A stretch of DNA of 62,827 nucleotides, the filler included, from Nemertoderma westbladi (taxonomy: Eukaryota > Animalia > Xenacoelomorpha), in the NCBI GenBank assembly GCA_032718475.1. It is 3 parts of 3 records of this genome, joined end to end, with 100 filler letters (N's around TTAATTAATTAA, not from the genome) between each part and the next. Parts side by side here need not be neighbours in the genome. Positions count along the whole stretch, not along the records: positions 1 to 26,199 come from JAUCBJ010002420.1; 2 more parts are not named here. The stretch is one strand, 5' to 3'. The notes below the pieces were generated by a model, which saw only the letters and a program-made list of their open reading frames with translations, was not told where the DNA came from and did not search any database. Positions 1 to 24,988 of the stretch are shown here, in pieces (position 1 is the first letter of the stretch; each line of letters starts with the position of its first letter). A program made the translations under genes and the position numbers.

Positions 1-20
1 CAGACGATAACCCAGCGGAC

Positions 21-1742
21 TTGTTGTCGAGGGGCGTAGAACGCCACACTTTCCTGAAAAAGGAAGTATTGTGGCAGCATGGGCCACAATTTCTGAGCGA
101 TAAGGAAGCCTGGCCGCCGATGAGGAAGGTGGACCCGGGCTCGGAAGTAGTATCAGAAGGAGAAGAGGGAGATTCAGAGAGAGAAGAGATATACTCCCAG
201 ATGGTGAGGGAGATTAGGGACGTGCAACCAGGACGGGAACTGTGCGATAACCCGACGGATAAACTCCTCAGCTACAGTTCTAGTTGGTATAAGACCAAGA
301 AACTAGTGGCGTACTGGAGAGCCTTCGGGAATTTCCTTGCAGGACTTGGCAAGGACAAGAAGATCAGGACAACCATAGATCTGGAAGGAGCGGCCAAGGC
401 AGTGATCCGCTATGAACAACGGAGGAACTATGGCGACGAGGTGGAACGCGTCGGTAACCAACAGCACCTCCGACGGGACAGCAAGCTGATTACGCTGTCG
501 CCACAACTCAATGACGATGGGATTCTAGTAATGAATTCTAGGGTGGGATACAACAACAGCATAGTCGTACCACCGAAACCCATCATCATTCCTACAGGAT
601 CGCCAATAGTCCACCAGATTATATGGGACTCCCACAAATCGATATTGCATGGGGGCACCAACCGAACCCTCACAGAGATAAGGAGGACCTATTGGGTCAA
701 ACAATTAAGGAAGAAGGTTAAAGCGGTAGTGGGGCAGTGCCAGACCTGCCGACGAGCGAAGAAGGAGCGAGCCGTACAGGAGATGGCGCCACTACCGGCG
801 AGTAGGGTAAGACAGCACGACCCGCCATTTACGCATTGCGGTGTGGACATGTTCGGGCCGATAAAGATCAAAGTGATGCGACACACGGAGAAACGCTACG
901 GCATCATCTTCGTATGCAACAACACACGGGCGGTAGGGATAGAACTCGCCCAAGATGCAACTGCATCAGCATTCATTAATGCCTTAGAAAGGTTTAGGGA
1001 CCGCAAAGGTGGGACGATCGCAGTGATATACAGCGACAACGGCACCAACTTTGTGGGCGCAGAGAGTGAGATGGCAGAGGCCTTGGACATCTTGGAGGGA
1101 GAAGAAGTCAGGGCAGCCATGAGGCGACGACAAGTAAAGTGGGAGAGAAGGACGCCGTATGCACCACATACACTAGGGTGCGTCGAGAGACTGGTGGGCA
1201 GTTCAAAGCGTCTAATGACGAAGCTAATGAACACCCACATGGTCACTGAGGACGTCTTACGGACAGTACTTGCGAAGTGCGAGGGGATCATTAATAGCAG
1301 ACCGCTATATCCGGAGAATGATGACCCTGAGTCGTTAGACGTGCTGACGCCTAGCCATTTCCTGATGGAAAGGCCAGCGACCATCGATATGCGGGGTGTA
1401 GACCCAGATGACATACACTCCCGCCAAAGTTGGAAAGTCGCTAAAGCAATAAGCGCAGAGTATTGGAGGAGGTGTGTCGAGGAATACCTACCCACACTCC
1501 ATAAACGAAGCAAGTGGAGGAAGTCAAACAGGGAGTTAAGAGAGGGAGATCTCGTAATCGTTACGGATGATACTATCATCAACAACCAATGGCGGTTGGC
1601 GAGAGTTGTAGGCACCTACTCCGATGAGGACGGAAGAGTCCGATCGGTAGAAGTGCGGATAGGTGGAAAGATAGGTGCGAAGGACAGAAAAACCTACAGG
1701 AGAGCTGTAGGCAAATGCTGTCTGTTAGAAGGGGCACCTTAG
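21..1742 (+). CDS. BEL/Pao Pol C-terminus: end of RNase H region, H2C2 zinc finger, integrase core, C-terminal domain (5'-partial)
   Basis: Frame opens upstream with NPADLLSRG...LWQHGPQFL. It then has H-x4-H...YW...CQTC, the integrase core VDMFGP / YSDNGTNFVGA / GCVERLV, and LTPSHFL...YWRR...EYLPTL...KW, typical of Pao elements. Confidence 0.93.
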   Translation: MLSRGVERHTFLKKEVLWQHGPQFLSDKEAWPPMRKVDPGSEVVSEGEEGDSEREEIYSQMVREIRDVQPGRELCDNPTDKLLSYSSSWYKTKKLVAYWRAFGNFLAGLGKDKKIRTTIDLEGAAKAVIRYEQRRNYGDEVERVGNQQHLRRDSKLITLSPQLNDDGILVMNSRVGYNNSIVVPPKPIIIPTGSPIVHQIIWDSHKSILHGGTNRTLTEIRRTYWVKQLRKKVKAVVGQCQTCRRAKKERAVQEMAPLPASRVRQHDPPFTHCGVDMFGPIKIKVMRHTEKRYGIIFVCNNTRAVGIELAQDATASAFINALERFRDRKGGTIAVIYSDNGTNFVGAESEMAEALDILEGEEVRAAMRRRQVKWERRTPYAPHTLGCVERLVGSSKRLMTKLMNTHMVTEDVLRTVLAKCEGIINSRPLYPENDDPESLDVLTPSHFLMERPATIDMRGVDPDDIHSRQSWKVAKAISAEYWRRCVEEYLPTLHKRSKWRKSNRELREGDLVIVTDDTIINNQWRLARVVGTYSDEDGRVRSVEVRIGGKIGAKDRKTYRRAVGKCCLLEGAP

Positions 1743-1883
1743 TAGAGTTAAAGAAAAGTTTAGTCGTCCAGTTTTGGACTGAGGGGGGTGGGATTGAAGG
1801 CGAGACGCCCTTCCCACAAACAAAAATAAAAATAATAAAATAAAATAATAGTACATGGTAGGTACGCAGTTAGTAGGCAGAAG

Positions 1884-2243
1884 TTAGTTAGAGGGTACGT
1901 AGTACCGCTAGTTAGTTAGAGTTAGAAGGTACGTAGTACCTAGTTAGTTAGAGAGTTAGAAGGTACGTAGTACCGATAGTTAGTTAGAGAGTTAGAAGGT
2001 ACGTAGTACTGATAGTTAGTTAGAGAGTTAGAAGGTACGTAGTACCGATAGTTAGTCAGAGAGTTAGAGGGTACGTAGTACCGATAGTTAGTTAGAGAGT
2101 TAGAGGGTACGTAAGTACCGCTAGTTAGTTAGAGAGTTAGAGGGTACGTAAGTACCGCTAGTTAGTTAGAGAGTTAGAGGTTACGTAGTACCGTTAGTTA
2201 GAGAGAAAGTAAGAGTTAGAGGGTACGTAGTACCGTTAGTTAG
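1884..2243 (+). repeat. Tandem repeat, about 10 copies of a 33-37 bp unit (GTTAGTTAGAGAGTTAGARGGTACGTAGTACCGMTA) between pol and the extra ORF
   Basis: Direct reading of the periodic sequence. Confidence 0.93.
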
Positions 2244-2727
2244 AAGAGAGAGAGTAAGAGGTAAAAGGGGATATAGATATAGATATTAGTTAGCAGTTAG
2301 TAGAGAGAGGGAGTACAGCTGGGTAAGTCGTGTGGCCACACGATGCATACTGCTGTACTGCATAGGCCAGAATACAGAGTAGGCCAGAATGTGGATTAGA
2401 GAATAGAATAATCCATAGGCAATAGTAAGTAGTAGGACACTAGAATCAAAGTTAAAATAGATAAATAAATAGAATAGGGCTGAAAGTTACAAAATAATGG
2501 CAACACTAGGAAAGTTATTCTAGAACATAATAAAAGTAACGGACAGAAATTGTAAATTACGCTCATTTACTAGCTTCAAAATTAATTAGTGATAATTTAG
2601 GTTAAAAGGCGCAGTTAAGTAGGAAATAGGCCATTATCGAACCGTACAGAACATCTTAGATACATCACTCATCTGTATTGCGCCTTGGTAAGGCACCACC
2701 TTGCAGGTGAGCGAGTGAACGTACGGA

Positions 2728-5277
2728 ATGGCGAGTAAGTTGATCAGAAAGAGAAAGGCGGAGTCAGGAGGAAAGGAGATACAGGTGGATTTCACCGAGA
2801 GGCATCCGGAAGAGAAGACGAGAGGATACTACGAGAGGTTGGAAAGGGGTCACGCGGCGCGAGCGCTGCAGGATCACTTCAGGGAGATGCACGAACAGCG
2901 GCTGGTCGGGACCTACGGGACGCCGTCGCTGGACAACGCGATCTTCCAACACTTCCACTACGTGGTGAAAGGGGACGAGGCGAAGTTCGGGATTCCGAAG
3001 TACCCGAGGGAATCACCGAGGTAGGACTGGAAGAGATTCATAGAGTCCGTCAACAGAGGAGGATATATGATCCTAGACGACGAGGGAACCGTGGAAGACG
3101 AGGCGGGTTCGAGACGAGGAACGGCGGGGTCGGCCAGGACCATACTCCTACATTTGGCCGCGCCAAATGGGGACATCTTCTTATTCGACCTAGGGACGTA
3201 TGGGAAGAAGGACGGGCCGAAATTAAACCGGTTACCGAAAACGGTACAAGTCTTAGTAAGAGAGAAGTCGACGACGAAAGTGGGATCGGCGATTCGCGAG
3301 GATGCGGAGAGAATCATCAGTCCGGACGCCACCAACCTCCTGGATATGCAGAAGGTCTTTATGGCTATGATGGCACCGGATGGGTTCGGGGTAGTCGAAA
3401 ACACAGGCCAATGCGGGGCGGTGGCAATGGGCCAATTATTGGGGCTCGTATGCCACAAACCGATGGACTGGGGGAAGTTTAGGGAAGAATAAGGAGCAGA
3501 ACTAGCGAACTCGCTAAAGTGGGGAGCGAGACCGGGAAAGCAGGAGGTATATCAGTTCCGCAGGGGAGCGATAAAGGTATATCAGAAGCGATATATCCTG
3601 CAGGAGGACTGGATGATGATAAGTTTGCTTAACTTATTCATGACCGTGGTTATCGAGAGGGAACCAGGGGCATTTCTGTTATCGGGATCACCCCTAAGCT
3701 ACAGGAGAGCCTTTAAGACGGCCTTTGACGGTCTGGTAGACCACCCGGGGCTGAAGGGCGAGTCGGTGTACTACAACAGCCGGCATCTGGTAGACGGGGA
3801 GACAGATACACCGTATCAGAGATGGGAGCAGCTAGAGACGGATAGACGAGAAGCAAAGCGACTGGAAGAAGTCGCTAGACGGGAGAGGATAGAAGCAGAG
3901 GAGAGGGAAGAGGAGGCCAGGACACAGAGTTACGGCTTCGAGGAACAGGCAGGCCTAGACAAACTTCATTGGACTTCATCAGGGAGTTCGGGGGAGTCTC
4001 TAGGGCGAGAATTGGGATGGACGGTGGGATCGCCGAAACAGTCGACGTCGGGGTTGCAAACGATGCCCATACCAGCGGGCGCCGAGGGCGACCAACCGCC
4101 AAGGAAGTTAAGGGAGCTAGAGGGATGGAGAGCTACGGGGGAGAGCCAAGGCGGGAAGGGACATAGTGGATCCATCGGGATACTGGGATTGGAGACACTA
4201 CCAGAAGAGGAGGACGACGACGACGAGTTCGGAGAGATGCCGCCCATCGAGAGGATAGGCCACTCGGACACGGACTGGGTTGGCGGAAGGGTGGTGACGG
4301 CCAGTGGGGCGAGGGCCTTCTGGAACAGATCCGGCAAGCGGACCTGGGTGCACGAGGAGCCGGCGATGGATTTCGCGGGGAGCACCATCAGGTTGGGCGA
4401 GCAACCGGGGACGGCACCACGGATAGTATTCGGGGAGACGATGCCCGAGAGGGGCGGAGAGATCGACGTAGATAGAGAGACCAACGTAGAGAAGTTCGCC
4501 TACCAGCGACTCCACAGACCGCGGAGATCGCTTGGGACGAAAGACGAGGTGGGACGGGAGACATTGGTACTCGGCTGCGACTACTGTGGGAGACAGACCC
4601 ATCGGGAAAGCAGCTGCCTATACCGGTTCCAAAAGGGAACCTTTTGTCTCTACTGCAGAGAACCAAGCCACAGGATGAGGGCGTGTCCACGGTTGCATAA
4701 CCGATGTCCAAAGTGCCACTTTCGGGGACACTACGGACGCGAGTGCGACTGGATGAACGACGAGGAGAAGTTCACAAGATTCGAGGAGTGGGCCGACGTC
4801 GGGGCCATGACGCGCCAGCGCATGAAAGCCCAGGAGTTCAAGTGGGGTTTCTTCCTTATCAATCAGGAGACTCACATGGAAATCATAAAGCGGAGGCTAC
4901 CGTTTACCTACCAAGAGGTAGCAACGGCGGCGTCGTACGCTGGAGTGATGAACACGCAAAGGTATTTGGACAGGTGGACGCCAGAGAACCGAAGGGAGTT
5001 TAGGGATTTCTTGGCGGAGCACGTACCAAAGGCAATGAAAATGATCCTATGGGACGCCACCAGAGGGAGACAACCGGGCCACTCTGAGGGGCCACCGGCG
5101 AAGCGATATCGGGCACTAATAACACCAGCGCCCAAGGAGCCAACGACCGGGATCAGCAAGGAAGTGGCGGCGAAGGTCCGAAAGCAGAAAGCGGACGATG
5201 CCAGAGGAACGGTGATAACCAAGAAACGACCCAGGGAAGAGGACGCCAGGGGGAACTATCCCCAGAGGAACACATAG
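2728..5277 (+). pseudogene. Element 1 extra ORF (env position): DEDDy-like 3'-5' exonuclease domain plus three CCHC zinc knuckles, with two in-frame stops
   Basis: ORFs 2728-3024, 3067-3492 and 3613-5277 share one frame, broken only by TAG (3022) and TAA (3490). Motifs: ILDDEG (ExoI, 3076-3084), LPKTVQVLV...KVGSAIRED (ExoII), LLDMQ, QKRYILQED (ExoIII-like, 3592). CX2CX4HX4C occurs three times at 4576-4746. Confidence 0.75.
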
Positions 5278-6007
5278 GTTCCCAGAGCCGAGGGAGAGAG
5301 ACTGAGACTTGGACGTGGTGCGCCTGGAAGGCACCGCGTGGGACGTACGAACTATTAAATACAAATTTAATTAATGCAAATAATCATATAAGTGCAATTT
5401 GTATGTACGTATGTAGTAATTAGTAATCTACGAATATATAAGCTCGAAGTAAGTACTATAGTCATACAACCTTTCTCAATTAGCTACTGGGACTGGGGGA
5501 TAACTGACTATGGCACTATGGACGAGACACCAGACAATTTCACACTTCTTGAGTGCGACGGCACAAGAGGGGGGGGGGGGGGGGGGGGAGATTCGTCAGA
5601 AGGGATGAGGTAGTCAGAGTAGGGTTGAGGGACAGAGTAGTTAGTGCGAAGTGCGGAGAGAGTGCGGGCGCAATTCTAGTGTGGGGGTGGGGGGGGGGAG
5701 AATAAGAGGCTGAGTGAGTGACGAGGAGGTCCGAGTATATGAGAGAGCTAGGGTGAGAGTGAAGAAGAGATAGGGCGGAAGTGTTGGGGAAACAAAGGTT
5801 GCGTGAGAGGTGAGCGCGATCGGCCCGACATGAGACGCCAGGCACACAGGGTAGCGTTATCATACCCATAGGGGGCGGCCTGGAAAGCCGACTCCGAGAG
5901 AAAAGAATTCCACCCCACACCCGATACTAGATCGGGATCCAGCGGGATTGTAGCGCACTTTGAGGTGGATGCTATCTTCTCACCGGGAAGATAGCATGGG
6001 GGGGGAG

Positions 6008-6546
6008 TGTTAGCTTATTCAATCCCGCTAACCCAAACCCTAAAGTAAGCCAATAAGCAATATTGGGGGCCACGAGATTGGGTAACCCAATCTCGCGTCA
6101 CCCCAACAAAGTGGGAAGGAGAAACAGACAATGAGGGTCAGGGGCCAAACCCCTAACAAAGAGAGAATAGGTGGAGTGAACGGGAACACTCCAAAGGGCA
6201 CCAACAAGGGTATCAACCAATCAGAGGGGGGAAAGGCATCAGCTAGGTACAGTAACAAGGCCAACCCGTGCAATATAACCAGTTGGCAGTAATCATCTCA
6301 TTCAGTTATCTCAGTGTTATTGGTGTTACAGTAGCAATAGTTTAGCTAGGGAAGTACCGGGACTTCAATTACCGTCTCCCGCCTTCCATATACAACAATA
6401 TATTACCAGCCATTATCTATATCTATATTATATATCCCGAGTATTATATACGACGAACAACGCAAACTCTTTTATCTTTCACACATGGCGGGGACGCGTG
6501 AACTGACAAACCGGATAAACCGGGATCCTTCCTGGATCCCGTCACA
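6008..6546 (+). repeat. LTR (539 bp, TG...CA) of BEL/Pao element 1
   Basis: Preceded by a PPT, starts TGTTAG, ends GTCACA, and aligns along its whole length with 7289-7833. Confidence 0.92.
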
Positions 6547-6558
6547 TGGTATTTCGAG
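6547..6558 (+). promoter_or_regulatory. Putative primer-binding site (TGGTATTTCGAG)
   Basis: Starts with TGG immediately after the LTR end. 10/12 match to the tRNA-Tyr-type PBS TGGTCCTTCGAG common in BEL/Pao elements. Confidence 0.6.
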
Positions 6559-7288
6559 TAATCTGGGCCATGTGTCCTCCTATACTCCTAATAATGTTCT
6601 CCTGGCTTCCAGTCGAACTTACCATGTCCGGTGCCTGCAATCTGGTTTGCGGGACGGTAAGGAAGTCATCGGTTCTACCGTCGCCACACGCTACGGCTTC
6701 CGGTATTTCCGATCGTGGTACTGGCAACGCATGCAGTGTGACATCGGTAGAATCGCGAGTCCTCCTTCTCGGGTCGTCTACTGTCAATCTGTCTGGGTCA
6801 CACGAATCATAGTCGGTAGGTGGGTATCGAGTCAAATGTGGTGTATCACTCATGTCTGTATTATATACGTCAAATATGGGTAATAAATGTCAAAATGTCA
6901 GAATGTCAAAATGTCAAAATATCAAAATTTACCTCGGTATATATATATACTATATATACCCTAACCGGTACAAATAAAATCAAAAGGTATATAATAAAAT
7001 AATGATAATTCAGCCTACCGGCTAAATCTGTACGAATAAGTGAGATAACGGTATACGTTACCAAAATGTAGATCAACAAGTACAGATAATAGGCAAAACA
7101 GCAACGTCTAATGGGAAAATAAGTACCAACAACACTACTAATTAGACAGTGAAACCCACAAATTTTGAGTACTACTGTGCACTTAAGTTTGAACGACACG
7201 AGTCGTAAAACTCGTCTTCCAGTTGTGCAAATTCCGCACTTTTTTGGTTGATGCTATCTTCTTACCGGGAAGATAGCATGGGGGGGAG

Positions 7289-7833
7289 TGTTAGCTTATT
7301 CAATCCCGCTAACACCCCATAAAGTTATAAGCCGATAAGCAATATTGGGAGCCACGAGATTGGGTAATTAACCAACTCGTGCCATCCCAATAAGAATGGG
7401 AAGGAGAAGCACACAATGAGGGTCAGGGGCCAAACCCCTAACCCAGAGAGAACAGGTGGAGTGAACGGGAAAACTCCAAAGGGCGCCAACAAGGGTATCA
7501 ACCAATCAGAGGGGGGAAAGGCATCGATTAGGTAGAGTAACAAGGCCAACCGTGCAATATAGCCACTTGGCAGTAATCATATCGATTCAGTTATCTCAGT
7601 GCAATACCGGTGCTAGATTAGGTTACATAGTTTTAGCTAGGGAAGGACCGGGACTTTAGTTACCGTATCCCGCCTTCCGTATACGACAATATTATCTCAT
7701 ATCTATATCTATATCTATATCTGCATATCATATTATATACGACAAACAGCACAAACTCATTCACTCCTTATACACGGCGGGGACGCGTGAACTAACAACG
7801 GATAAACCGGGATCCCTCTTGGATCCCGTCACA
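7289..7833 (+). repeat. Second, diverged copy of the element 1 LTR (545 bp), with its own PPT
   Basis: Same TGTTAGCTTATTCAATCCC start and GGATCCCGTCACA end. Preceded by the same GAAGATAGCATGGGGGGGAG PPT. Many substitutions and indels relative to 6008-6546. Confidence 0.92.
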
Positions 7834-10239
7834 CATATTCCATTATAGTTTTTAATTAGTTCAAGAGATTTGCTTTAATAAATGTGTTTTTAATTGTTCT
7901 AAATGTAATTAAGTTACAATGCATTCCATCACTCTATACTTCCAGTCTCATCATTCCTTGGCATTCTTGATATTGCCTATTTGATGGGAAACACGTTCGT
8001 GGGGCCATCGCGCAGGACGAGGCTCAGTTATCAGATACATATTAAAATTGATGCTCGTACAACACATGTAATAAAATTTAAGAAATTCCACCAAAAAATA
8101 ATTTATTTTACTTTAATTGCCTGGAAAAAAGTAAAATCAATGCAATACTATGGGTTACTTTTTTCTCTACAGAAAAAATAGTCATTTTTTCCCGATTTTA
8201 GGGTATATTCGAGCGAAAGAGTAACAATTTAAAAATAAAATTTCATAAAAATTTAAACCGTACTGTGTTTGGTTATCAACCTCGTACAGTTTGTAACTCC
8301 GAGCGCTACCTGCACACCAGCAGCACAGTATTAAAGGCCTGCACCACCACCCAGTTGAGTTACAGAAGTTGTTTGGTGGTCTAAAATTTGGTTGCCTAAA
8401 AACTAGGAGAACTTTAATGAATATTTTGTTTCTGTTTAGTTTCTATTGGAGCTTAGGATCCAGTGGATCTCATCTGGATCGCCCCGACAGACCACATCGA
8501 CATTGTCGGATATACCGTCCGTATTGTCTGACAGTCGGACGGGAGCAGGCTCTACCTGCAGAGTACGGGTTCCAGGTTGCCGTGGTTACTGGGGGTCTTA
8601 CGGTGGATTCGGTACAGTTGTGTCAGTACAACCCGGTTAGTTCGGCTAATTATATTTCAATAAAACGTATTTTATATTTCTTTCATTCTACTAGTAAGGT
8701 TATTGTTCGCGCTTTTAGACCTTTAGCAGTTTAACCCGCCAATTTTAGGTGTCTTCTAGTTTATAAATCGACTTTAGCCTATAAAACTGTTTAGTACACA
8801 TAAAGTAACATTAGCCGAAACCAGTCTATGCGCGACCATTCACCCACTGTTAAGGGAGACTGGATTCGGATGCTTTGATCTTATTGCGGTGCAGACCTAC
8901 CGTATTATTCGATTGATCGTTACTATATAATCTCTGACAAATATTATTTACTTTCGGGAAATATTAACAGTTACTTTAGGACGCGGCGCTCTAAGTATGT
9001 AAACAGAGTTATGACTTACACTAAACACAACGGGATGGCTAATGATTTTCGTTTATAGCGCATTCTTTAGGAAATGCTTTGTTATCTATCACACTCCTGC
9101 ACACTACCACACACTGCTGCACACTGATCTGCCGACCTTCACTAAATTTGATCATATATAAGGAGAATAGCATCTGACACATGTAGAGATTATGAAATAG
9201 CATTCAATTCACTGCAAAACCACTATAATGTAAGTCGCAGTTGCTACAGGTAACTGGTCCCTCTTACCTTCAGTATATCAAGAAGATTGGGGTTTTATGA
9301 TTATTTATCGATAATCTCCAAATATAACAACATATCAATCAACATATATAATAATTAATAACCGACAGTAAACAGAAGTAAAATAATGGTGCAGGTGCAA
9401 AGAACGTGACTGGAGTAGCAATTTGATAACAGTTATACGTTCCTATAATCAAGCCGTCTAATGTTTGGCTAAAGTCTGAAACTCAGAATAATTCCAAAGC
9501 CGATGTTCTGGGCTCAGGAAAAGGTAAACAAAGACCGTAATGCATTGCATGATTTCCCGTAGGCTTCTGTACAAGATAAAATGAAAATCGCTCTGATTGG
9601 TCGAGTGAGCTGAACAAAGAGAGTTAAGAAAGCTCCACATCGACATCAAATCAGCTGATAGATTTCGTCATATGAAACTACACTGTATTAAGAGTATTTT
9701 GGCGCATTGCGGCATAAAATGGCTTGTTATGTCCGCATAGTACACATACAGAAAAAATGGCTTTTTATGTCCGCTAAAACACCTACACAGTACTTTGCGG
9801 GAAAAAATGACTGGTTATATCCGCAAAAGCTTTTACACCGCTCCCAGAAAATGGGATTTAATTCTATAAAATATAAAAAATCACAGTTTCTAAAATATAA
9901 AAATACTCTAAACAGTTAGTCTTTCTTGCGCGGACGGCGTTTACGCAGTTTTTTGAGGCTAGCAAGAGTCCTTTTCTCTTTGGGGCAAGCCACTTTACTA
10001 GGAGGACTATAACTCCTGGGTGAAGGGTGCAATACAATTGCATCGGAAGGTTTAGGATTACGGTCGGTGTATCCACCGGTCGGGGTACCCGGTTGATCGA
10101 TATCAACCTCAGTGGAGCGAGGTCGAACGGCCTTTAGAGCGCGTTTCAGGACAGCAGCTCTTACTGGTCCCTGACGAGTCGTCTGAACAAGAGCGGTAGG
10201 TGGACCATGGGCAGTGAGAAACTTCCTCGGTTTAATGGT

Positions 10240-10540
10240 TATTGGGATCGGAAATAAATGAATACCAGCTGCATCAGTTTATTAATGGTCGACATACAGA
10301 ACAGCATATCAAACAATAATAAGAACCAACAGACCAACGAACACACCCACCACCTTACAGCACATCAGTACAGCAGTACAGTAGGTACCGGTAACGGTTA
10401 CTGTACCTACAGACCTAGAAGATAGGAAAGACTGAATACCGGAATACCAGAAGAGGACCGGTAGCTAAAAGACCAGTAGGTTGGATCTAACCACCACCAA
10501 GCCAGGGTCTACTAGAGCCCTAACAATACATAATCTAACA
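10240..10540 (-). repeat. Gypsy 3' LTR (301 bp)
   Basis: Direct repeat of 14822-15122, adjacent to the PPT. Confidence 0.96.
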
Positions 10541-10610
10541 TCTCCCCCAAGAACAATGTAGGAGACATTTGTAGTGAAAAAAAAAATCCAACCACCACCA
10601 ATAGGTCAGT

Positions 10611-13600
10611 TCATTGAACTCCGAATCTTGCTGGTTGCTTGTGAGTTCTCGAACTGCGCCTGGGAAGATCATCAGCGAACTGTACATGTTTTTGAGGCGT
10701 TATATCACGAAGAGAAGAGTCATCTGGGATGGAACGTAGATAACGACGATTTCTCCAATACACCCGACCATTGTCTAGTTCTATCCAGTAATCTCGTCTA
10801 GTACCACGGGAAAGGACGATACCAGATTTGTTCCATAGTTTGGAATGTGCACTCTGGATGCAAACTCGGGAACCAATAGGAATCGGGGTTAAGTCGTGAG
10901 CATGATCATTATAATATGATTCAGTTGCTGAAGACGTTGAAGGCCAAGGGATAGGGAATGAATCACCTGCCAGTGTGGACGAATGAGCTGGTATAGTGGA
11001 ACGGAGGGATCTACCGAACAACAGTTGAGCTGGAGACATACCATGTTCTTTAGGAGTATTTCTCCATTCCAGCAAACCACGAACAAAGCAAGTAGAGTTT
11101 AGATCTCCTTTGACATCTAACTTTTTTATCAATGATTTCATGGCCTTTACAGCCCCCTCTGCATGGCCATTAGACTGAGGATACTCAGGAGTAGAATACT
11201 CAGGGATGATATTCCATTCGGATAAGAAATCATGATAACGTGCTGAATTAAATTGTGTACCACCATCAGAACGAAGGCGTTTTGGAATACCGAAATCTTT
11301 GAACCATCCTCGAAGAGCTGAAATAACTTGAGAGCTGGAAGGATCGGCACGCCAAGAATGAACGCATGGCCACCCAGAATATCTATCGACATAAACCAGG
11401 TATGACCAGGTGCTGAAGTAGAAAAGATCAGCAGAGCAATCCTCCATTGGAAGACATGGATGAGGGTCGCTTTGGAGAGACTCTTTAGGTAAACTTGGTT
11501 GATAAAGTTGACACTGGGGACAAGAATTGACTATGTTTGTAATATCGCTATTGATACCAGGCCAGAATACAGTTTGCCTAGCTCTCCTCTTAGAACGTTC
11601 AATGCCCTGATGAGCATCATGAAGGTGCTTCAGGACATTCTTGCGGAGGGAAGATGGAATTACAATCCGGGAACCTAATAAAAGAAGATTATCTTCACAA
11701 GATAACTGATGTCGCACATTCCAGAATGGGCGTATGTGCACAGAACATTGTGTGGATGTTGAGGGAAATCCAGAAATAACAGCATCCACCAAAGCCATGT
11801 AAGAAATATCATCCTTTGCAGATGATCGGATAGACTCAATATATGAATCCTTGAGATGACTTGGAGCATCAGAGACAACAATTGAGGTAGACACGTGACG
11901 AATGACTGCGGAAACATGGTCATTGACATCTGTATCACAAAGAATATCCTCTGGAGTAGGATCCGAAACAGGGGCACGGGAAAGTGCGTCTGTAATCGAA
12001 TCGATATCGGAAGTGATATCGGAAGTGATATCGGAAGTGATATCAGAAGTGATATCAGAAGTGATATCGGAAATGATATCGGAAGTGATATCAGAAGTGA
12101 TATCGGAAGTGATATCGGAAATGATATCGGAAGTGATATCAGAAATGATATCGGAAGTGATATCAGAAGTGATATCAGAAGTGATATCGGAAGTGATATC
12201 AGAAGTGATATCGGAAGTGATATCGGAAGTGATATCGGAAATGATATCGGAAGTGATATCAGAAGTGATATCGGAAGTGATATCGGAAGTGATATCGGAA
12301 ATGATATCGGAAGTGATATCAGAAGTGATATCGGAAGTGATATCGGAAGTGATATCAGAAGTGATATCGGAAGTGATATCGGAAGTGATATCGGAAATGA
12401 TATCGGAAGTGATATCGGAAGTGATATCAGAAGTGATATCGGAAGTGATATCGGAAGTGATATCGGAAGGATGGACCCAATTAGTTGGTTCGTTATCCAG
12501 AACTGGACAAATAATACCTTGTTCAACCATTTTCTCTAAGCGAGCTTTAGCCCAGTCTCTAATGGCTAAAGGAAGTTGCCTGGCTGTATGAATAGCATAT
12601 GGTTGGGCATCATCTTTTAATGAAATGGTCATGGGTGGGCCATTCATTGGACGAAGTTTGTCATCTTGGTCAAAAACATCAGAATAAGCCTTTATGAGTT
12701 TCTGCTTAACAATATCCCATTCTGAAGGCGAAGGTTCATCAGAAAGATGGAAGTCAACCTTGAATGATGTTGTTGGAATTGAGTTTTTAATACCAATAGG
12801 TGACATATTAGAAGAATTAGAAGAAGCAACAGACTGAATTTCTGCCACTGGTTCTGGATATGAACTTGAAATAATTCCTAGGTTTTGACAAGTATACCAT
12901 GCCAAAAGAATTCCATTGACTTCTTCACAAATGCAGATAAGCTCATCAGTTGAATATTCACCATAGGAAATTGTAGTGTGGAGGAGACCAATGCATGAAA
13001 GAAGACTACCATTAGCAGCAGAAAGATCATCATGGTCTGGTGGAAGTAAATTTTCTTTGTCAATAGAAAGGGCCTGAAGAAAATCTAAGCCGGCAACAGT
13101 GGCCTCAGCACCAGTATCTGGAGTTGCTTTGAGAGAACCGAATAAATGTCCTGTTGCGATATGACAGAAGTTCAGAAATACTTTCGGAGCTTGTCGATTA
13201 TGGCTTCCAACCAAATTGAGGGTGATGCGGCTAATGGGTTTTGTCTTAGGTTTTGAAGATGAATTCGAATTATTTTGTTTAGACCGACAAACATTGGCAA
13301 AGTGGCCTTCCTTGCCACAATAAGAACAATCTTTGTTCCTTGCTGGACTGTCAGCGCGTTTATGGTCTGTTTTACCACAACCATAACAAACTATAGGGCC
13401 AGTAGTTGAAGAATTGTTTCTGGAATTGGATTTAGAAGAATTGTTGCGCCTGGAATTATAAGGTTTTTTGTTGTGAAAACGAGATTGTCGAGAAGCTTGG
13501 TTGATTGAAGGGTTTTTTAAATCCTGAACTCCAGCTTGCGCTGATTCCTCAGACCTACAAAGATTTACAGCATCTTCAAGCGAAGGAAATGGAGTCAATG

Positions 13601-14291
13601 CAAGAAGTTTAGATCTGGTGTCCTCGCAAGAAATACCAGACATAATTCGAGTAGTCAACCGCCGATCGAAACAATGACGACATAGATCAGCATCTCGAGC
13701 AAGATCTTTAATAGCAACCAGGTAGCTATCAAAATTTTCACTTTGACGTTGTTTCCTATTATCAAACTGAACACAATCAAGGGCTATATTCCGTTTACCA
13801 CGAAAATAACTTTGAATACAATCTATTAACACCTGAACTGTTAAAGGATTATCATGTGTGTCAGGAGGAATGTCAATAACTTGTTCCAGTGTAGAGCGCA
13901 TACCTATAGAAAGGTAACTCCTGAAAATACAGATTTGCCTATCCCTAGCCATTCTATCCATCTGAAATGCAGAATAATAATCCGCCCAAACCGACTTCCA
14001 AGTTTCAAATTTTGCTAAACTGAAATCCGGTTCTAAAGCAATTGGTGCTTTAATTTGAAGATTACGAGGGGTTGAGTCAGCCTGATGAACTACAGGTTGA
14101 TGTGGTTGACCAAGTAATTGTTGAAATTGATGGGCATTTTGGGCTTGGGATTGTGCTAAGGAATCAGCCAAATCGCGTTGTGATTTAACTAAAGCATGTA
14201 GAAGAGCTGAGGTGGGATCAGGATTACCACGACCAGCCAACTGTTCTCTTAAAACCTCCAGTTCGGTTTCGAGTTCAGCTTTAGTAGGCAT
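10611..14291 (-). CDS. Gag-protease-(SDIT)n-integrase polyprotein, 1226 aa, lacking RT and RNase H
   Basis: Gag (FDNRKQRQSENFDSYL), knuckles CYGCGKTDH and CSYCGKEGHFANVC, protease DTGA, pre-RT PTNWVHP. Then the repeat, the post-RNase H motif DALSRAP, HDAHQG...FWPGI...CPQC, and integrase ADLF / LRSDGGTQF / PQSNGHAE. No YxDD motif. Confidence 0.92.
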   Translation of the reverse strand: MPTKAELETELEVLREQLAGRGNPDPTSALLHALVKSQRDLADSLAQSQAQNAHQFQQLLGQPHQPVVHQADSTPRNLQIKAPIALEPDFSLAKFETWKSVWADYYSAFQMDRMARDRQICIFRSYLSIGMRSTLEQVIDIPPDTHDNPLTVQVLIDCIQSYFRGKRNIALDCVQFDNRKQRQSENFDSYLVAIKDLARDADLCRHCFDRRLTTRIMSGISCEDTRSKLLALTPFPSLEDAVNLCRSEESAQAGVQDLKNPSINQASRQSRFHNKKPYNSRRNNSSKSNSRNNSSTTGPIVCYGCGKTDHKRADSPARNKDCSYCGKEGHFANVCRSKQNNSNSSSKPKTKPISRITLNLVGSHNRQAPKVFLNFCHIATGHLFGSLKATPDTGAEATVAGLDFLQALSIDKENLLPPDHDDLSAANGSLLSCIGLLHTTISYGEYSTDELICICEEVNGILLAWYTCQNLGIISSSYPEPVAEIQSVASSNSSNMSPIGIKNSIPTTSFKVDFHLSDEPSPSEWDIVKQKLIKAYSDVFDQDDKLRPMNGPPMTISLKDDAQPYAIHTARQLPLAIRDWAKARLEKMVEQGIICPVLDNEPTNWVHPSDITSDITSDITSDITSDITSDIISDITSDITSDITSDITSDITSDITSDITSDIISDITSDITSDITSDITSDIISDITSDITSDITSDITSDITSDITSDITSDIISDITSDIISDITSDITSDITSDIISDITSDITSDITSDITSDITSDIDSITDALSRAPVSDPTPEDILCDTDVNDHVSAVIRHVSTSIVVSDAPSHLKDSYIESIRSSAKDDISYMALVDAVISGFPSTSTQCSVHIRPFWNVRHQLSCEDNLLLLGSRIVIPSSLRKNVLKHLHDAHQGIERSKRRARQTVFWPGINSDITNIVNSCPQCQLYQPSLPKESLQSDPHPCLPMEDCSADLFYFSTWSYLVYVDRYSGWPCVHSWRADPSSSQVISALRGWFKDFGIPKRLRSDGGTQFNSARYHDFLSEWNIIPEYSTPEYPQSNGHAEGAVKAMKSLIKKLDVKGDLNSTCFVRGLLEWRNTPKEHGMSPAQLLFGRSLRSTIPAHSSTLAGDSFPIPWPSTSSATESYYNDHAHDLTPIPIGSRVCIQSAHSKLWNKSGIVLSRGTRRDYWIELDNGRVYWRNRRYLRSIPDDSSLRDITPQKHVQFADDLPRRSSRTHKQPARFGVQ
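12002..12468 (-). repeat. 12-bp minisatellite, about 39 copies of TCYGATATCAYT, translated as SDIT/SDII
   Basis: Direct reading. Each unit contains the GATATC palindrome, and only two positions vary. Confidence 0.97.
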
Positions 14292-14821
14292 ATCTGACTG
14301 TTGAATAGTAGAGAAATTTCAGGAAATTAAATATCCGAAAAAATTTGCAAAATCCGAAAAGAAAAAATTTTGCAAAAATGTGCAAAACTTTTGCACGCAA
14401 ATCAGCCAAAATCTGTAGTTATTGAATACTGGCAGACTGGAATACCGCCTGACTGCTGAATGTGAATAGGTACCGGTAGTTTCTAATTAGGCTAGCGGGC
14501 GTGGCTGCCTACCCCTCACGGCCCCCGGACAGTGCAAGGTCCTCAGCGCCGATGTACCGTCGTCGCTGTGTTTTTCGCCAACGATGTAGCTACACAACGA
14601 CAACGATAACCGCGAGCCACTCCACTGTCCGTCCCAAGGGCTTAGTTTAGAAGAGTACTGGAGTAGGTACACCACCGGAAGTATAGGTAGGTAGCTAGGC
14701 CTAGATCAGAATCAGTAGAGGCGACCGGTAGAATAATATTGAATTATCTGACCTGCTGAATGCGCTGGAATGTCCACCATTTGAATAGGGTTGTAGGAAC
14801 ATCAAGTACATCACTGCGCCA

Positions 14822-15122
14822 TATTGGGATCGGAAATAAATGAATACCAGCTGCATCAGTTTATTAATGGTCGACATACAGAACAGCATATCAAACAATA
14901 ATAAGAACCAACAGACCAACGAACACACCCACCACCTTACAGCACATCAGTACAGCAGTACAGTAGGTACCGGTAACGGTTACTGTACCTACAGACCTAG
15001 AAGATAGGAAAGACTGAATACCGGAATACCAGAAGAGGACCGGTAGCTAAAAGACCAGTAGGTTGGATCTAACCACCACCAAGCCAGGGTCTACTAGAGC
15101 CCTAACAATACATAATCTAACA
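14822..15122 (-). repeat. Gypsy 5' LTR (301 bp)
   Basis: Direct repeat of 10240-10540, followed by the PBS. Confidence 0.96.
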
Positions 15123-18100
15123 ATGGTTCTTTCCAACTCGCGTTCTCGGCTCGATATTCGTAGGGCCGTCTATGCACTTCCTGTAACTCTGGATAAGAGT
15201 TGATGAACAAGTCGCCATATTCCGGATCTTGACGAATGAAGTTGATCAAGTTATAGGAATTAAGATCGTTAGGATTAATGTTCCTGAGATATTTACGAAC
15301 AAATTTGGTTGAAATACATTCGCCAACACGCTTCATTAGTTCGTAACTCGGTGTGCGTGATTTTTGTTCAACAGACGCGAATAGGTAAGGATGGAATGCA
15401 TAAACTCCTTCGTAGGCGCATCCAGGGTAATAGCGATGGCGTGACTCACAATGTAAATCCGCGTTCGCTTCCCAAGCTCGGATGTAGCGTAGGGTAATCA
15501 TTTCATCTACGCTTTCCAGATCGCGGTTAAAAGGGCAATCAAAACTGGCATGTCCTTTAAGTTGACAATGATGGCATTGAGTCATAAATTGGGGGCAGAC
15601 TGCGAAAATGTGCAAGTTATTGAGTCTGCAATACGCACAATAGATCTCCATCGCCGGTTGTTCATGGAAATAGGAGCAGGGTACGTCTGAGTCCATGGGT
15701 GTAAGATGGTCTCTCGATGCGCATAATCGGCAACGTTTTCGAGAAACATAGTTGGCATGCCGATAATCGTATGCGGTGAGACACTGTGGACCTTGATACC
15801 ATTCCAAGACGTAGTCGTTGTCGCTGCTCCGGGGCGCGGTAGGTTGAATCGCCTCAGATTCTAAGCATATTGGTTCGTCTTCCAATTGCATAGCTGAGGT
15901 AGGTGTGACTGTTTCCTCAAGCGAACCCACTGTCTGAACTTCCACGATAGAATAGCCCGTGGGAATTCGAGGTCTTTGTATAACAGAGGAATGTAAGTTC
16001 TGTATACAAACATCCTTGAAAATGGCGAATCCAGCGCTGTCTAACTTCTCAGTAGCTGAGTCTCTTAGGCTGAGCTTGGTCAGAGCGCGGTCCTTGAACT
16101 GACTATCAACGTTACGGAACGGAGTCAGAAAGCGCCTGAAACATTCGAAGCGGATGAATTTATTGTGTTCATCTAGCTTGGTGAGTTTGGTTCCAAGTAT
16201 TAAGGGATGGGCGCGTATAGTATGACTGCACACATCGGCTAGCCAATACGGCAAGTGCGGCGTTTTCAAAGATCGTGTATATAGCTAAGGAGGGACGAAG
16301 GGGAACACTCATGAAGCTATACACGACACCAGGTGCAGTCAATGGTCCATCGAAGTATAATCGAGAATAATGATCTCCATATACTTGTTGATAGTTGATA
16401 GGATTTCCGACCTTGAAATTCCATCCGTATTCTTGAAAGGCAAGATGTCCGATGGAGGTTCGTTGTACTTTAGTAATGCTGCTGGGTGTATTGGCATACA
16501 TAGTTCGGAAGAAACCTCGGCCTTCTGCCCAGGGAGCAATCAGCTGAGTATCTACGAAAGGATATGGGATATTCTCCATGTTCTGAAAGTCGTTTTGGAG
16601 ATCTCCATAAACAGCTGAGCCGATTTTAAGGATTCTTTCGTTAAACAACATCTCGAGCACGGGCTGGGGTAACATCGATCCATCGATACCCATGGCCGGT
16701 TTCGCTCGGTGTCAGTGACGTAACGCTGCGCGAGTTCGAATTGTCCATGTCGGAGTTTCTTTTGTATCTTAGTGAGAGTCTCAAAGGAATAATCGATCAC
16801 GTCGGAACACACTCGAGTAAACACATGGGTAGAACCAGCTAGTCCTCGTATGTGTATCATGCGCGTAGTTCCCAGTTCTCCGACCGGAACGCTACCTTCG
16901 TTATTGTAAGTGACAACTCCATACATTTCGATAACGTTAAGAGTTTCGTTCCACTCTTTAGTGGCGTTCTCTAGGGTCATCCCCACCGGATGCCACAAGT
17001 TGGCGCATTCGCTAGCGCTAGGGAGATCCCTATACTTCAGATACTGTGTAGTATACGTCTCCACATCTCCATATCTTTGTATTCTCTCTTTTTCGAATAA
17101 TACGCCGAGATTCCAATGGACTAATCGAGTTTTAATAAATCCATCGAGATTATACGGAGGTGTTGTATCCTTCTCTATTCTAGAAACATTGTATAGTTTT
17201 CTGAATGAATTTACTTTCACTAACTGATCCAGATGTTTCTGCAATTGTTCGAGTTCGACAAGGTCGAGAGGATTTATTAGCGGTAGAAACCTTAGATTAT
17301 GCGTCGGGTCTTCAGGTTTTACCATATAATATTGAGTTAGATTGACGTAATAAGGGTGGTCTTTGATCCCATAAAACGAGTTCGGTAAAGGTCTAGCGCG
17401 TATGTTGACCTTGTGTACCATACGACGGACAAGATCCGCTTGATTGTCCGGAGGTTCAACGAGTATACCGTCGACACGAGCGGCCTCGATTGGAGGACGC
17501 TGTAACATAGGAGCGTCAGGGATAAGATCTCGGGATCTTAGGTTGATATCAACCGGTTGGGGTTGTACCGTCGCGAAGAGTTTGTCTCCGAAATGGGGAA
17601 CCATCGAGGGATGAATGATGGTTTTGGAATAGAGATCAGTCATAAGGATTTGAGCTTCGGGTTGGGCTAAAGCTGCTTCTTCTCTCTCATCCATTTCGAT
17701 GTGTTTCTCCTCGAGCTGATTTTCCTCCGCTTGTCGTTGTAAGCGTTCATCTAAAAACTCTTGTAGAGAATAGGTTCATCCAAGTTCGATGTCTTCCTCC
17801 GAGGTTTTGGATTTCTCGATCGAACTGTGGCAAGGCAAACTCCTTCACCGATTGGACTTGTTGCTGCAATTTACGTTTCTCTAAACAATCGTACGTTCCT
17901 TTTCCGATCTTCTGCCGAATAGCATCTAATGCGTTTCTTATAACGCGCTCCTCGACTTCGGTGACGGGTTGTATCGGGGTTAAACCGGGACAATTGTAAG
18001 GGTTGAACGGCGATATTAAATGTCCGCATCCCAATCCGGCTAGGTAGGATGGGCGAATATCTAGAGAGCCCACTACCGGAGTGCCACTGATTAATTGTTT

Positions 18101-18463
18101 GGGTAACACTAAATCTTTGAACAGTGAGTATAGTTCGGGAGGATCCGTGATACTATTAGGATCAAGAGTTTGAGGTCTCACTGGGGAATGAGGAGGTCTG
18201 TCCGAGTATTCCGGAACTCTGATCATGGGTTTATTTAAAGATCGTTTGAGGCGAGCGATCGTAGGTGATACATCAAACAAATTTCGCTCGAAACTCCCGT
18301 AAGTATAGCGAGTAAAACTGTGTTTAGCGCAACGTCTCCGCGGATGTTTATGTCTTTCCGTTTGTTGGTTGGGTCTAGGGCATTCATCACAATAATACCA
18401 AAGACGCACGTCCTGTAGAGGAAACGCGGGTGATCGTTCTCCAGTTTTACAATATTCCTCCAT
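15123..18463 (-). pseudogene. Element 2 extra ORF: N-terminal Cys/His region, DEDDy-like exonuclease domain and three zinc knuckles; frameshifted and cut by the Gypsy insertion (tail resumes at about 10234-9916)
   Basis: Overlapping fragments 18463-17747, 17694-16552, 16693-16169 and 16269-15123. Motifs TYNNEGS, LPQPVLEML...LKIGSAVYGD, FVDTQ, AIYTIFEN, then CRLC..H..C, CAYC..H..C and CHHCQLKGHASFDC. Homologous to 2728-5277. Confidence 0.7.
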
Positions 18464-18469
18464 CTGTTC

Positions 18470-21400
18470 GAAGCCAAAGCGTCGTCTCCAGAAATGTGTA
18501 GTACAGACAGATCTATCACGGGTTTAAATAACTTCGATTTACTCGTCCGGGTTTTAGGTTTGACTTTCTCCGTTCCCTTGGCTTGTCTAATCTCAGCCGT
18601 GGTGAGATGAGGGGGCCATTCATCCTCTTCTTTACTTAGGAAGTCGGGTCCACCTAACCAGTCTGGAGTGTCTACCAGTTCTTGAGGAGTTGCTCCTCTG
18701 GAGGCGATGTCAGCTGGATTAATCGTCCCAGGGCAATGTCTCCATTGATCTATCTTCGTGCGACTAAGTATAATGGCTACTCTGTTGGTAACGAAGACGC
18801 TGAACTGACAGACTTCATTGGCTATATACTCCAACACGAGTAAAGCATCGGTCCAATAGACAGTTTTCTCCAGAGGATAGTCGATCTGTTCTGTTACATT
18901 CCGGCCGATGGCTGTAGCGTATAGAGCCGCTTTTAACTCCGCTCAAGGAACTTTCAGCTTGTTGTTTATCAAGGCCTTAGAGGTAACCAAGGCGACCTTA
19001 ATTCCATCTGGAGTTTCAACCCTCAAGTAGGCTACTATACCTATTCCCATGTTGCTGGCGTCTCCAAACACATGGAGTTGATAGGAATACGTGGGGAGAA
19101 TGTGACCAAAATATGAACGGGAAATAATAAAGTTCTCGATGGAAGGTAGAGAATCTTCCCATTTCATCCACTTCTTTAGCAGTTCTCCCTTAAGTGGATC
19201 GTCCCATGAGTGGTTTTCAAGCCACATTTGTTGTACTAAACTCTGAGCAACCAATATAATGGGGCTAATAAATCCCAATGGATCGAAATAAGTGCTCAGG
19301 ATACTTAGACCAATCCGTTTGGTGCAAACTGGATTATCTCGCTGTTTTAGTTGGAAAAACAGGATATCTCTCTCCGTGTCCCATTTCAAACCAAGCGTCT
19401 TAGTTTCTGGAAGATCGTCCTTGATAAGGTCTAGATCTTTAGTTCCTCGGTCTTCTACCAGGATCGATTCCAGAAATTCCTGGGAGTTACTTGTGAATTT
19501 AGTTAATCTAAATCCACCTCTTTTCAAGCACTCTACCGTTCCCTTGGCGACATCAATGGCTTCTTCCACCGATGGGAGGGACTTTAAATTGTCGTCCATG
19601 TATATATCCCTTTTGATGTTGTCGATAACCGCTTTAGAGAAGGCGTCCCGATTGTCTTCAGCAGTGGTATGCACTACTGAGCAGGCGTTTGAGGGGCTCG
19701 AGATGATCCCAAAAGCCTGTATGGTCATCCAGTACTCCACTGGTTTTTGGTTGAGGTCTCGTTCAGGCCACCACAGAAATCGTAGTCTGTCGCGATCCCT
19801 ATCCAGCGCTTTAACTTGTAAGAACATGCCTTCTATATCCGAAGCAAAAGCAATCGAATATTGTCGTAATCTTAAGAGTATTCCCAACAAGGATTGGAGT
19901 AAGTTGGGTCCCGGCAACAACTCGGAGTTAAGGGATTGGCCCATGTAGAGGGCGGAGCTGTCAAATACTACCCGGACTTCGTTGGGTTTACCGGGTTTGG
20001 GAACGTAATGGTGTGTTAAATAGTATGTTCTCTCGGTTATGGGTGTTTCTTCTGGTACTCGCTCCGCATATCCCTTGTCAATGAATTTCTTCAGCTGGGT
20101 CCTGTACATCTCCTTAGCTGAAGCATTTGCCGTAAGGCGTCGATGTAGTTGCGCGATTCTCTTCTCCGCCAAAGGTCGGTTATTTATAAAATTGGGTTCT
20201 CTCCGTCGGAAAGGCAGACCAATCTCATACCTACCTTGATCTTTAAGAAAACGTGTAGTCGTTTCCTGTATCTGCTTGGCTCTTTCCTCTTCTACCGATA
20301 GGGCCTTATCGTAGGAATTGGGCTCTACAGCCTCTTGAGTGAAGAATCGTACGGCGTGTTCATCGCGAGTCTTCGCGTTTTAACAATCTATCACTTCATT
20401 CAGTTCGTCGTTGTAATCGACTTGTCCCGCTGGATGGATGAGGTGACACAGGTTCACTTGGTTTTGCCAAGTTTCATTTTCCGTAAGGAGGTCGATGGTA
20501 TTCTCCTCGTCGAATGGTTGATGAATATCGTCATTATCTGAGGAGTATGGCGTTCCCTCAGGTGTGTCGTCTCCCTTACTGATTTCCTCTTCCCATTCAC
20601 TCACCTGGTGGACTTGATCTTTAGGTAGCCTTTCCATGAGTGTCCTACGGGAAGGTCCAGTAAAGTACCAACCTACTCTAGTTCTTCCCGCATAGGTTTG
20701 CAGTGGTTGCGGTTGAGCAGGCCGTTTCTCTAATGTCTCAAGCGCCTCATGCACATTTTGGCCGATGAGTATTTGTACCCCTGGATAGTCGGTGTTGAAT
20801 CTAGGTATCTCATGCTGCTGGGTGAAATTGTCTTCATCCCAGTTATAAGGTTCCACTTGGCTGGTAGCGAAGTTCTTTATCACTACCATCTTCACTGACC
20901 TTATACTGTGTTCTCCTAGTTCATCCTGGGGGGTGGATAACGCGCCTACATAGTAGTCTGTAGCTACTGTAGATTTCCAAACCTGCATAATTCCTGAAAG
21001 GTTCAACTTAGTTCGGAACTTGGGTTGTCCAGCAAAGATATCTTCGGCTAGTTCTTTGTCGATGAATGTTCCTGTGCTGCCGGAGTCAAGGAGGGCGTTC
21101 ACTATATAGCTCCTTTTTAACCCGTGGACTCTCAACTGCACTACGGGAAATTCTCGGATTCCTACGTTGGAAGTTGGCGCTTTCCAAGATGGTTGTCGGT
21201 CAGGAATAGTTAAGGGGAGCTCACTATCAGTTTCAGTCTCATACGTAAGTGCTCGATACAGTGCAGTGTTTATTAGATAACAGGATTCGTTTTCGTCGGA
21301 GAATTCATCTGTGTAGAATCCTTCCATCTCCGAACTGTGGTCAGTGTCGTTCACATCACTGAATTGGACATGTAGTTTGGACTCACTTACCTGACTCGGG

Positions 21401-24400: not shown

Positions 24401-24853
24401 ATAACTATCCTTGGTCGATTGCTTACTTCTCGCCCAATCGATTTGTTGTTCTTCAACAGCAATCAATACTCTAGTGAGAACAGCTTCAGGAAGAACAAGA
24501 AGTGGATCCGAATAAACCGCCTTTGCCATCTCTGCTCCGATCTCGGGCAGCAACTCTACAGTATCTGTACTACTGGAGCTATCGGACCGCGGAGAAATAA
24601 GTTCTCGGCTCGGGTGTTGGTGGTGCTGCTGTTTAACAGCTGCCTCCTGGTCCCGCTTGACTTGAGCCCGCGTGCCTATAATAGACCTACGGTGCTTGAC
24701 TAGCCTAGGGTCTGATACTACAACTGGGAGAATAACCTTTCTTACAGTAGGAGGGGATTTGAACTTTGGTCTCAAACGTTCCGCACTCCTATCTAAATCA
24801 CAGACTGTTGTTTCTAAGAGACTATCTGACAGATTTTGCTTTGTGTCAGCCAT
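18470..24853 (-). pseudogene. Element 2 gag-pol (Gag, three Cys/His knuckles, aspartic protease, RT, RNase H); stops and frameshifts; no integrase
   Basis: KFNGDEMKWLPF...EKLRFL (Pao Gag), CALC/CYNC/CAKC knuckles, ALLDSGS, RVVFDSSA...SLNSELLPGPNL, DIEGMFLQV, YMDD, LHVFGDAS, WRHCPGTINPADIASRG. In-frame stops at 21958, 20380 and 18943; frameshifts near 23810 and 23240. Confidence 0.9.
23440..23670 (-). repeat. Imperfect in-frame repeat encoding AAE(A/V)ERK coiled-coil/charged helix in the element 2 Gag N-terminal region
   Basis: Repeated GCCGCTTTTCTTTCC[AG]CTTC units on the + strand, translated in ORF 23226-23789. Confidence 0.85.
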
Positions 24854-24988
24854 GTTTGTTTGTACAGTTGAATGCCTACTACTATAACTATAGTTAAAGC
24901 AAGTCTAGTAATTCAGTATCAACTATAAGCCTAGTAAGTAATTACCGATACCGTCACTCAGTGCAGCGTGATATATATACAATATATT

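Follow-up and report, generated by a model that had tools for sequence, protein, structure and literature searches.

Which protein does an LTR retrotransposon of Nemertoderma westbladi (Xenacoelomorpha) encode in the slot otherwise taken by env, and is it of use to the element? The window, i.e. the whole stretch of 62,827 nt from assembly GCA_032718475.1 that was analysed here, contains two elements relevant to this question, referred to as element 1 (plus strand) and element 2 (minus strand). The initial annotation had described a frame of about 850 codons in element 1 that follows pol after a spacer of about 1 kb, contains two in-frame stops and encodes a DEDDy exonuclease with three zinc knuckles. 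The frame, termed ORF3 in the following, indeed comprises 849 codons plus stop (2728-5277, +), is interrupted at codons 99 (3022-3024) and 255 (3490-3492) and lies 985 bp behind pol.

A third gene between pol and the LTR

Element 1 enters the window within pol. The remaining 3' part (3-1742, +) consists of an RNase H tail, an integrase zinc finger and core, and DUF5641 (Pfam PF17921, PF00665 and PF18701), the last of which we take to be a BEL/Pao marker. Element 2 is a broken gag-pol (18640-24904, -) with DUF1759, an aspartic protease, RT and PF05380; Pfam thus finds the Bel/Pao markers DUF1759 and PF05380 in this element. The first pol residues of element 1 match its PF05380-bearing RNase H tail (E 1e-05), PF05380 being the Bel/Pao RNase H (PMC3985635). 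The pol order protease-RT-RNase H-integrase is seen in parts, with the RNase H tail preceding the integrase in element 1, and protease, RT and PF05380 in element 2. No integrase is found between RNase H and the ORF3 region of element 2. As the window starts inside pol of element 1, the assignment rests on domain content and not on an RT tree, and by its domain content element 1 is a BEL/Pao-type LTR retrotransposon.

Downstream of ORF3, a polypurine tract of 10 nt (5998-6007, +) precedes an LTR of 478 bp (TG...CA; 6008-6485, +), which closes element 1 and is directly followed by a primer-binding-site-like motif starting with TGG at 6486; primer sites of BEL/Pao are complementary to tRNA-Arg or tRNA-Gly. 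Tract and LTR fit the expectation for BEL/Pao (LTR of 0.2-1.2 kb, polypurine tract of ~10 nt before the LTR). Together with the integrase/DUF5641 end of pol and the RNase H match to the PF05380-bearing element they bear out the BEL/Pao host proposed initially. Since the end of pol is located upstream, and the purine tract and the TG...CA repeat downstream, ORF3 occupies the env slot.

A second unit of tract, LTR and primer site of the same family is located at 7235-7833 (+; self-BLAST 84% over 612 bp), and its LTR copy (7289-7775) is identical to the LTR at 6008-6485 in 414 of 468 aligned bases. Within 5954-7833 the two units are thus arranged in tandem, ~88% alike across the LTR and ~0.8 kb apart, and contigs of the family also join across both of them. 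This suggests that the family has short derivatives, either in tandem or with internal deletions.

The spacer between pol and ORF3 (1743-2727, +) is non-coding and holds a purine-rich tandem array of ten 36-bp units (1886-2250) as well as a candidate splice site. The length of the array varies among family copies, and it may have a role in regulating ORF3 expression. The candidate splice acceptor at 2706 (2701-2711) is present, with a weak polypyrimidine tract below the cut-off of 9 of 15, and the same site reads donor-like too (CAG/GTGAG). ORF3 would be expressed from a subgenomic or spliced RNA of its own. Third ORFs of this kind are typically separate, spliced units according to PMC5408684.

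BEL/Pao elements with env-like third genes carry these in the same slot, from pol to the 3' LTR (PMC8742986, PMC3118150). In contrast to them, ORF3 has neither a signal peptide nor a membrane helix and is predicted to be an intracellular nucleic-acid enzyme. The highest Kyte-Doolittle mean over 19 residues is only 1.3, hence no membrane helix is expected, and the N-terminus is basic and not a signal peptide. An env identity was ruled out for these two reasons, as had been argued before.

The predicted exonuclease domain and the zinc knuckles

ORF3 begins with a predicted DnaQ-like exonuclease domain of the WRN/EXD/RNase D type (3028-3660, +). It is followed by a Glu/Arg-rich helical stretch and a low-complexity acidic linker (3790-4260, +), both derived from sequence and charge profile and matching no family. 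Three CX2CX4HX4C zinc knuckles (4576-4746, +; starts at 4576, 4645 and 4705) and a basic tail (5080-5274, +; charge profile) complete the frame, just as initially described. The basic patches of the tail resemble what we take to be a nuclear-localisation pattern.

All four nuclease motifs of the initial annotation are present and in order, namely ILDDEG (starting at 3070), KVGSAIRED (3277), LLDMQ (3337) and YILQED (3592). The putative catalytic residues are D117 and E119 in ExoI (3076, 3082), D192 in ExoII (3301), and Y289 and E293 in ExoIII (3592, 3604). D117, E119, D192 and Y289 align on invariant columns of the nuclease family. ORF3 thereby shows the D-x-E of ExoI and the D of ExoII that mark DEDDy exonucleases, the ExoII segment being significant. 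The acid of ExoIII, however, had to be reassigned: Y289 of the Y-x3-D motif aligns, but the acid position is taken by E293 (Y-x3-E), and D294 is located one residue further.

At E 0.1 and 10 Pfam gave no match for the nuclease of element 1, only the knuckles appearing below the cut-off, and NCBIfam gave none either. Word-index homologue searches with nuclease and ORF3 returned 7,987 and 964 candidates and 0 matches. No real relative of the nuclease was found by phmmer among 1.84 billion representatives; the sole match, to a 2,805-aa protein in which one stretch of 18 residues is hit 14 times, was treated as a repeat artefact. PDB sequence searches and exact look-ups with nuclease and ORF3 were blank, phages and plasmids contained no match to either, and viral and metagenome contigs gave none to the nuclease or to pol. 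Rfam found nothing on 1-26000. Such blank searches fit an animal whose annotated relatives are all distant, as seen from the splicing factor SF3A3 (from 43790), which is 51-58% identical to its homologues in many animal phyla, none exceeding 58% among the 120 matches listed.

SF3A3 belongs to a region of host genes with very long exons (30780-62045, Pfam). Further members are a NOMO1-like gene (30780-32993, 38517-40064), a glycerate-kinase-like gene with DUF4147/MOFRL (41589-43085, -) and NAGLU (60000-62045, -). An AT-rich array of 20-bp units lies between the NOMO1 frames (32905-33900), and a near-identical tandem duplication of 2,025 bp plus arrays of 46 bp and 21 bp is found at 54600-59200. 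Moreover, there are four runs of 44 N at 26200-26299 and 48378-48477.

Profiles were built from 24 bacterial proteins without any window sequence, 14 of them stand-alone (WRN/EXD-type) and 10 RNase D-like. The PDB entries best matched by a profile of the first 10 stand-alone proteins are WRN, mut-7 and EXD2. When the 660 stop-to-stop segments of the window are ranked by the WRN/EXD profile, a piece of element 2 comes first (16172-16711, E 0.014) and the element 1 piece 3025-3489 second (E 0.015), and the score of either piece was reached by 0 of 1000 shuffles. A profile of RNase D-like proteins only does not fit (63 of 1000 shuffles as high). Using hhalign, a probability of 59.8% (E 8.8e-05) was obtained for an alignment of 125 columns that starts before ExoII and reaches ExoIII, and in a comparable run the score was reached by 0 of 150 shuffles; the significance of the profiles rests mainly on the ExoII segment. 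The ESM Atlas places 3025-3489 beside PF01612 clusters (0.94, 185 of 256 features, recognition 2964), in which just 11-36% of the members carry PF01612.

Single-sequence folding of the nuclease using AlphaFold was unusable (pLDDT 31.9). An alignment-guided model of the domain reached pLDDT 68.7 and pTM 0.70; it used the 24 bacterial family rows, and its fold matches are thus partly circular. Foldseek returned 29 matches at E <= 0.001, including EXD2, Egalitarian, T. brucei RNase D (TbRND), RICE1 and Nibbler. In a comparison with 48,161 chains, DnaQ-like structures were found at Z 11-12 (rmsd 3.3-4.5, 151-188 aligned), with Nibbler, Exd1 and Egalitarian among the tied top neighbours. DnaQ-like domains of the A-/B-family polymerase proofreading type also occur among the neighbours, and in a viral library giant-virus 3'-5' exonucleases match as well. 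With family members making up the alignment, such matches of structure indicate no more than compatibility. Taken together, the Atlas and the independent profile test, with the guided model under its caveat of circularity, make it very probable that the nuclease region adopts the predicted DnaQ-like fold, in line with the initial proposal. With WRN, EXD2, Mut-7 (Nibbler), EXD1 and Egalitarian (PF01612) ORF3 shares the motif order, the ExoII signature and the best-fitting profile, but it differs from this group by lying below Pfam detection, by Glu at ExoIII, by its fusion to knuckles and by being element-borne.

When all six frames of the window were scanned, 8 knuckle-type matches appeared, each of them within a retrotransposon frame. 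In the PDB, the three ORF3 knuckles best match by sequence a gag nucleocapsid (E 0.006), followed by the TbRND knuckle domain (E 0.009). A duplicate of the gag knuckles was rejected as their source, for they matched the knuckles of the element 2 ORF3 (E 2e-05) and not the gag knuckles of the window. Concerning an HRDC domain behind the nuclease as in Rrp6, Pfam gives nothing on ORF3, the nuclease itself likewise lying below Pfam detection.

TbRND, which is matched by ORF3 in both knuckle sequence and guided model, has an exonuclease domain followed by CCHC knuckles too (PDB 7c42/7c45, PMC7797062), a likeness of architecture only. TbRND is a cellular enzyme that trims guide RNAs, and its four knuckles follow the nuclease after a short linker of ~30 residues, whereas ORF3 belongs to a mobile element and has three knuckles ~300 residues downstream of the nuclease.

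ORF3 across the family and in a second element

The ORF3 of element 2 is present as frameshifted pieces (15122-18523, -), cut at 15122 by a gypsy-like element. Its ExoII piece (16172-16711, -) matches the RNase D model at E 0.0012 and PF01612 in the Atlas at 0.90, and its knuckle triad (near 15732, 15639 and 15576, -) matches element 1 by tBLASTn (E 2e-05). The triads of both elements align with a score reached by 0 of 500 shuffles, while in pairwise alignments of the nuclease regions 18 and 42 of 500 shuffles score as high, which is not significant. Hence the two elements are very distant, and common descent of both ORF3s rests on the knuckle triad and the architecture. One old capture or two separate captures are possible. 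The ExoI piece of element 2 matches no nuclease profile and apparently has Asn at ExoI, as judged by eye on an alignment that is not significant. A comparison of the element 2 piece with 151 Bacteroidota genomes gave noise only.

Unlike element 1, element 2 has a long N-terminal extension of ORF3 with a Cys/His-rich patch (17750-18523, -). The gypsy-like element inserted in its ORF3 (10240-15122, -) is flanked by two identical LTRs of 301 bp and a target duplication of 5 bp. A frame of 1,235 codons keeps gag, protease and integrase, and RT and RNase H are seemingly replaced by an in-frame array of 39 12-bp units (12003-12469). It would seem to be either young and non-autonomous or an artefact of assembly.

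Six public runs of four studies, none recorded as RNA, contain the stretch or part of it. A run under another organism label, presumed to be RNA, yielded 3 contigs of low depth, to which no weight is given. In four of these runs (three studies), 24,701, 10,967, 12,193 and 346 contigs were aligned to 1-7900, covering all 30 bins of this region in each run; no single contig spans pol and ORF3. Contigs running on into unlike sequence amount to 0-1% in the three large runs and 13% in the small one, so ORF3 rarely occurs in another context. At both ORF3 stop codons 99.8-100% of the aligned depth reads otherwise, and the stops are therefore private to the window copy. A minor copy class (less than ~1% of depth, three runs) skips 4741-5299 and thereby loses the basic tail along with the last part of the third knuckle.

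The selection analysis covers 2650-3750, for which 40 of 164 difference rows were listed; 2 of these precede the ATG, 2 fall on the stops and 36 were scored. Within codons 1-341, 30 of the 36 listed differences are synonymous and 27 are found at third positions. Compared to a neutral synonymous expectation of 0.29 this corresponds to p 3e-11 and a rough omega of 0.08 for these codons, the p-value being optimistic since support decided which rows were listed and few contigs link them. If the same rows are read in the other five frames, 10, 1, 8, 3 and 25 are synonymous, the 25 belonging to the in-register antisense frame. Pol, taken as a control, shows 12 of 16 listed differences to be synonymous. 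The listed indels within 2728-3750 comprise one compensating pair only. ORF3 is a family-wide gene kept under purifying selection, as shown for its 5' third. A dN/dS near 1 and a one-off capture, both raised as possibilities at the outset, can thus be dismissed: the former is refuted by the synonymous majority, the latter by thousands of family contigs covering the ORF and by a second BEL/Pao element with like architecture.

These data also bear on the view that ORF3 has no nuclease fold at all or is a functionless passenger, captured or nested in the element. The blank standard HMM and sequence searches and the unsuccessful single-sequence folding would agree with it. Yet two independent pieces of the window rank highest with a profile that contains neither of them, the Atlas agrees for both elements, purifying selection is strong and contigs rarely enter other sequence. 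We hence deem this view very unlikely.

The family is very diverse, most contigs being less than 99% alike. This speaks against ORF3 as a proofreading partner of the reverse transcriptase, a role suggested by DnaQ-like domains that proofread for A- and B-family polymerases and appear among the structural neighbours. A separate ORF, knuckles of the RNA-binding type and a best profile match to the stand-alone WRN/EXD type argue in the same direction. Proofreading is the weakest functional option and highly improbable.

Known third genes and the possible role of ORF3

DEDDy exonucleases in the env slot of LTR elements, cited in the initial annotation for bdelloid rotifers, are indeed published: according to Rodriguez et al. 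2017 (PMC5408684), such an ORF3 occurs in rotifer Juno1/2 and Vesta2/5 and is common to Athena/Terminon elements. As here, the Juno/Vesta ORF3 is described there as a DnaQ-like exonuclease after pol without a membrane helix. However, its hosts are gypsy-like and its acids are DEED, whereas the present ORF3 has a BEL/Pao-type host and the acids D-E-D-E; it is thus not a member of the Juno/Vesta group. A fusion to a triple CCHC is not described in the part of that report covered here, a Cys-His-Cys motif being noted in Vesta2/5, and the likeness is drawn from description. The reviews PMC6431247, PMC5718144 and PMC6338049 cite the rotifer case alone in the passages covered. The word exonuclease is absent from the main text of the BEL/Pao survey PMC3118150 and likewise from PMC13524379 and PMC12477816. 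In the literature partly covered here, neither a BEL/Pao exonuclease ORF nor its fusion to knuckles was found in print, which agrees with the earlier statement that the fusion is unfamiliar in BEL/Pao; it may already be annotated in Repbase, Dfam or GyDB. New are the BEL/Pao host, the WRN/EXD-type domain and the triple knuckle, while a DEDDy ORF3 in LTR elements as such is already published.

Our leading, though tentative, reading is that ORF3 is the third gene of the family and encodes an RNA-binding 3'-5' exoribonuclease, with the blunting of small-RNA (piRNA) silencing as its most likely effect. The protein would be translated from a message of its own; single-stranded RNA would be gripped by the three knuckles and trimmed from its 3' end by the WRN/EXD-type nuclease domain, which in turn would blunt silencing of the element by host small RNAs (piRNAs). 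The idea of an RNA-gripping exoribonuclease comes from the knuckle match to TbRND, together with the strong increase in RNA binding and cleavage by the TbRND knuckles reported in PMC7797062. The substrate would be RNA rather than DNA. The nuclease is probably active, although the last catalytic acid aligns as Glu and not as Asp.

This Glu is also the first point in favour of a pseudo-nuclease with weak or no catalysis, which together with the knuckles would form an RNA-binding scaffold, decoy or transport adaptor resembling EXD1 or Egalitarian. The apparent Asn at ExoI of element 2 would fit as well, and so would the structural comparison, in which Exd1 and Egalitarian share the top rank with other neighbours. 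PMC5408684 describes EXD1 and Maelstrom as RNA-binding DEDD derivatives without activity. On the other hand, each of the four catalytic positions in element 1 still holds an acid and the Tyr is present, the Asn may be private to element 2, this being a decayed copy, and the ranking by structure consists of ties obtained with a guided model. Altogether we regard a pseudo-nuclease as unlikely.

If active, the exonuclease may serve the element's own replication by trimming, ahead of integration, the 3' end of its genomic RNA, remnants of primers or the ends of the cDNA. The same evidence from fold and selection applies, WRN-type domains cut DNA too, and the basic patches would presumably suit a nuclear role. 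Processing of the 3' end of element RNA is moreover proposed in PMC5408684. In opposition to this, BEL/Pao elements are described with gag, pol and optional env only (PMC8742986), and from this general content BEL/Pao replication does not normally need ORF3; besides, a separate ORF has no evident route into particles. Such a role is about as improbable as the scaffold, and both are close rivals of the small-RNA reading.

Small RNAs are preferred as the target of the exoribonuclease since ORF3 is dispensable for BEL/Pao generally yet selected in this abundant family, and since the nearest nuclease group includes proteins of the piRNA pathway. Nibbler and Egalitarian have roles in piRNA and RNA handling. 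For EXD1, such a role is stated in PMC5408684. Nothing in our data favours small RNAs over the element's own RNA or cDNA. Overall, the small-RNA pathway is a possible but rather doubtful target.

What exonuclease third genes do in LTR elements has been a question since the rotifer report, which could not show a benefit to the element. The present data place such a gene in another superfamily, where it occurs in two strongly diverged elements as well as in an abundant family under clear purifying selection. Its presence across elements and the purifying selection imply that the element needs ORF3, and the three-knuckle fusion offers a concrete, TbRND-like biochemical model. More speculative and quite unlikely is a scenario in which BEL/Pao captured a Nibbler/EXD-like nuclease and, after fusion to knuckles, employed it as a suppressor that destroys or mis-trims piRNAs, i.e. 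a convergent anti-silencing module acquired separately in gypsy and BEL/Pao. If true, this would help to explain the very high copy number of the family. Should the piRNA pathway be the target, ORF3 would represent a rare case in which a retrotransposon of an animal itself encodes a nuclease for counter-defence.
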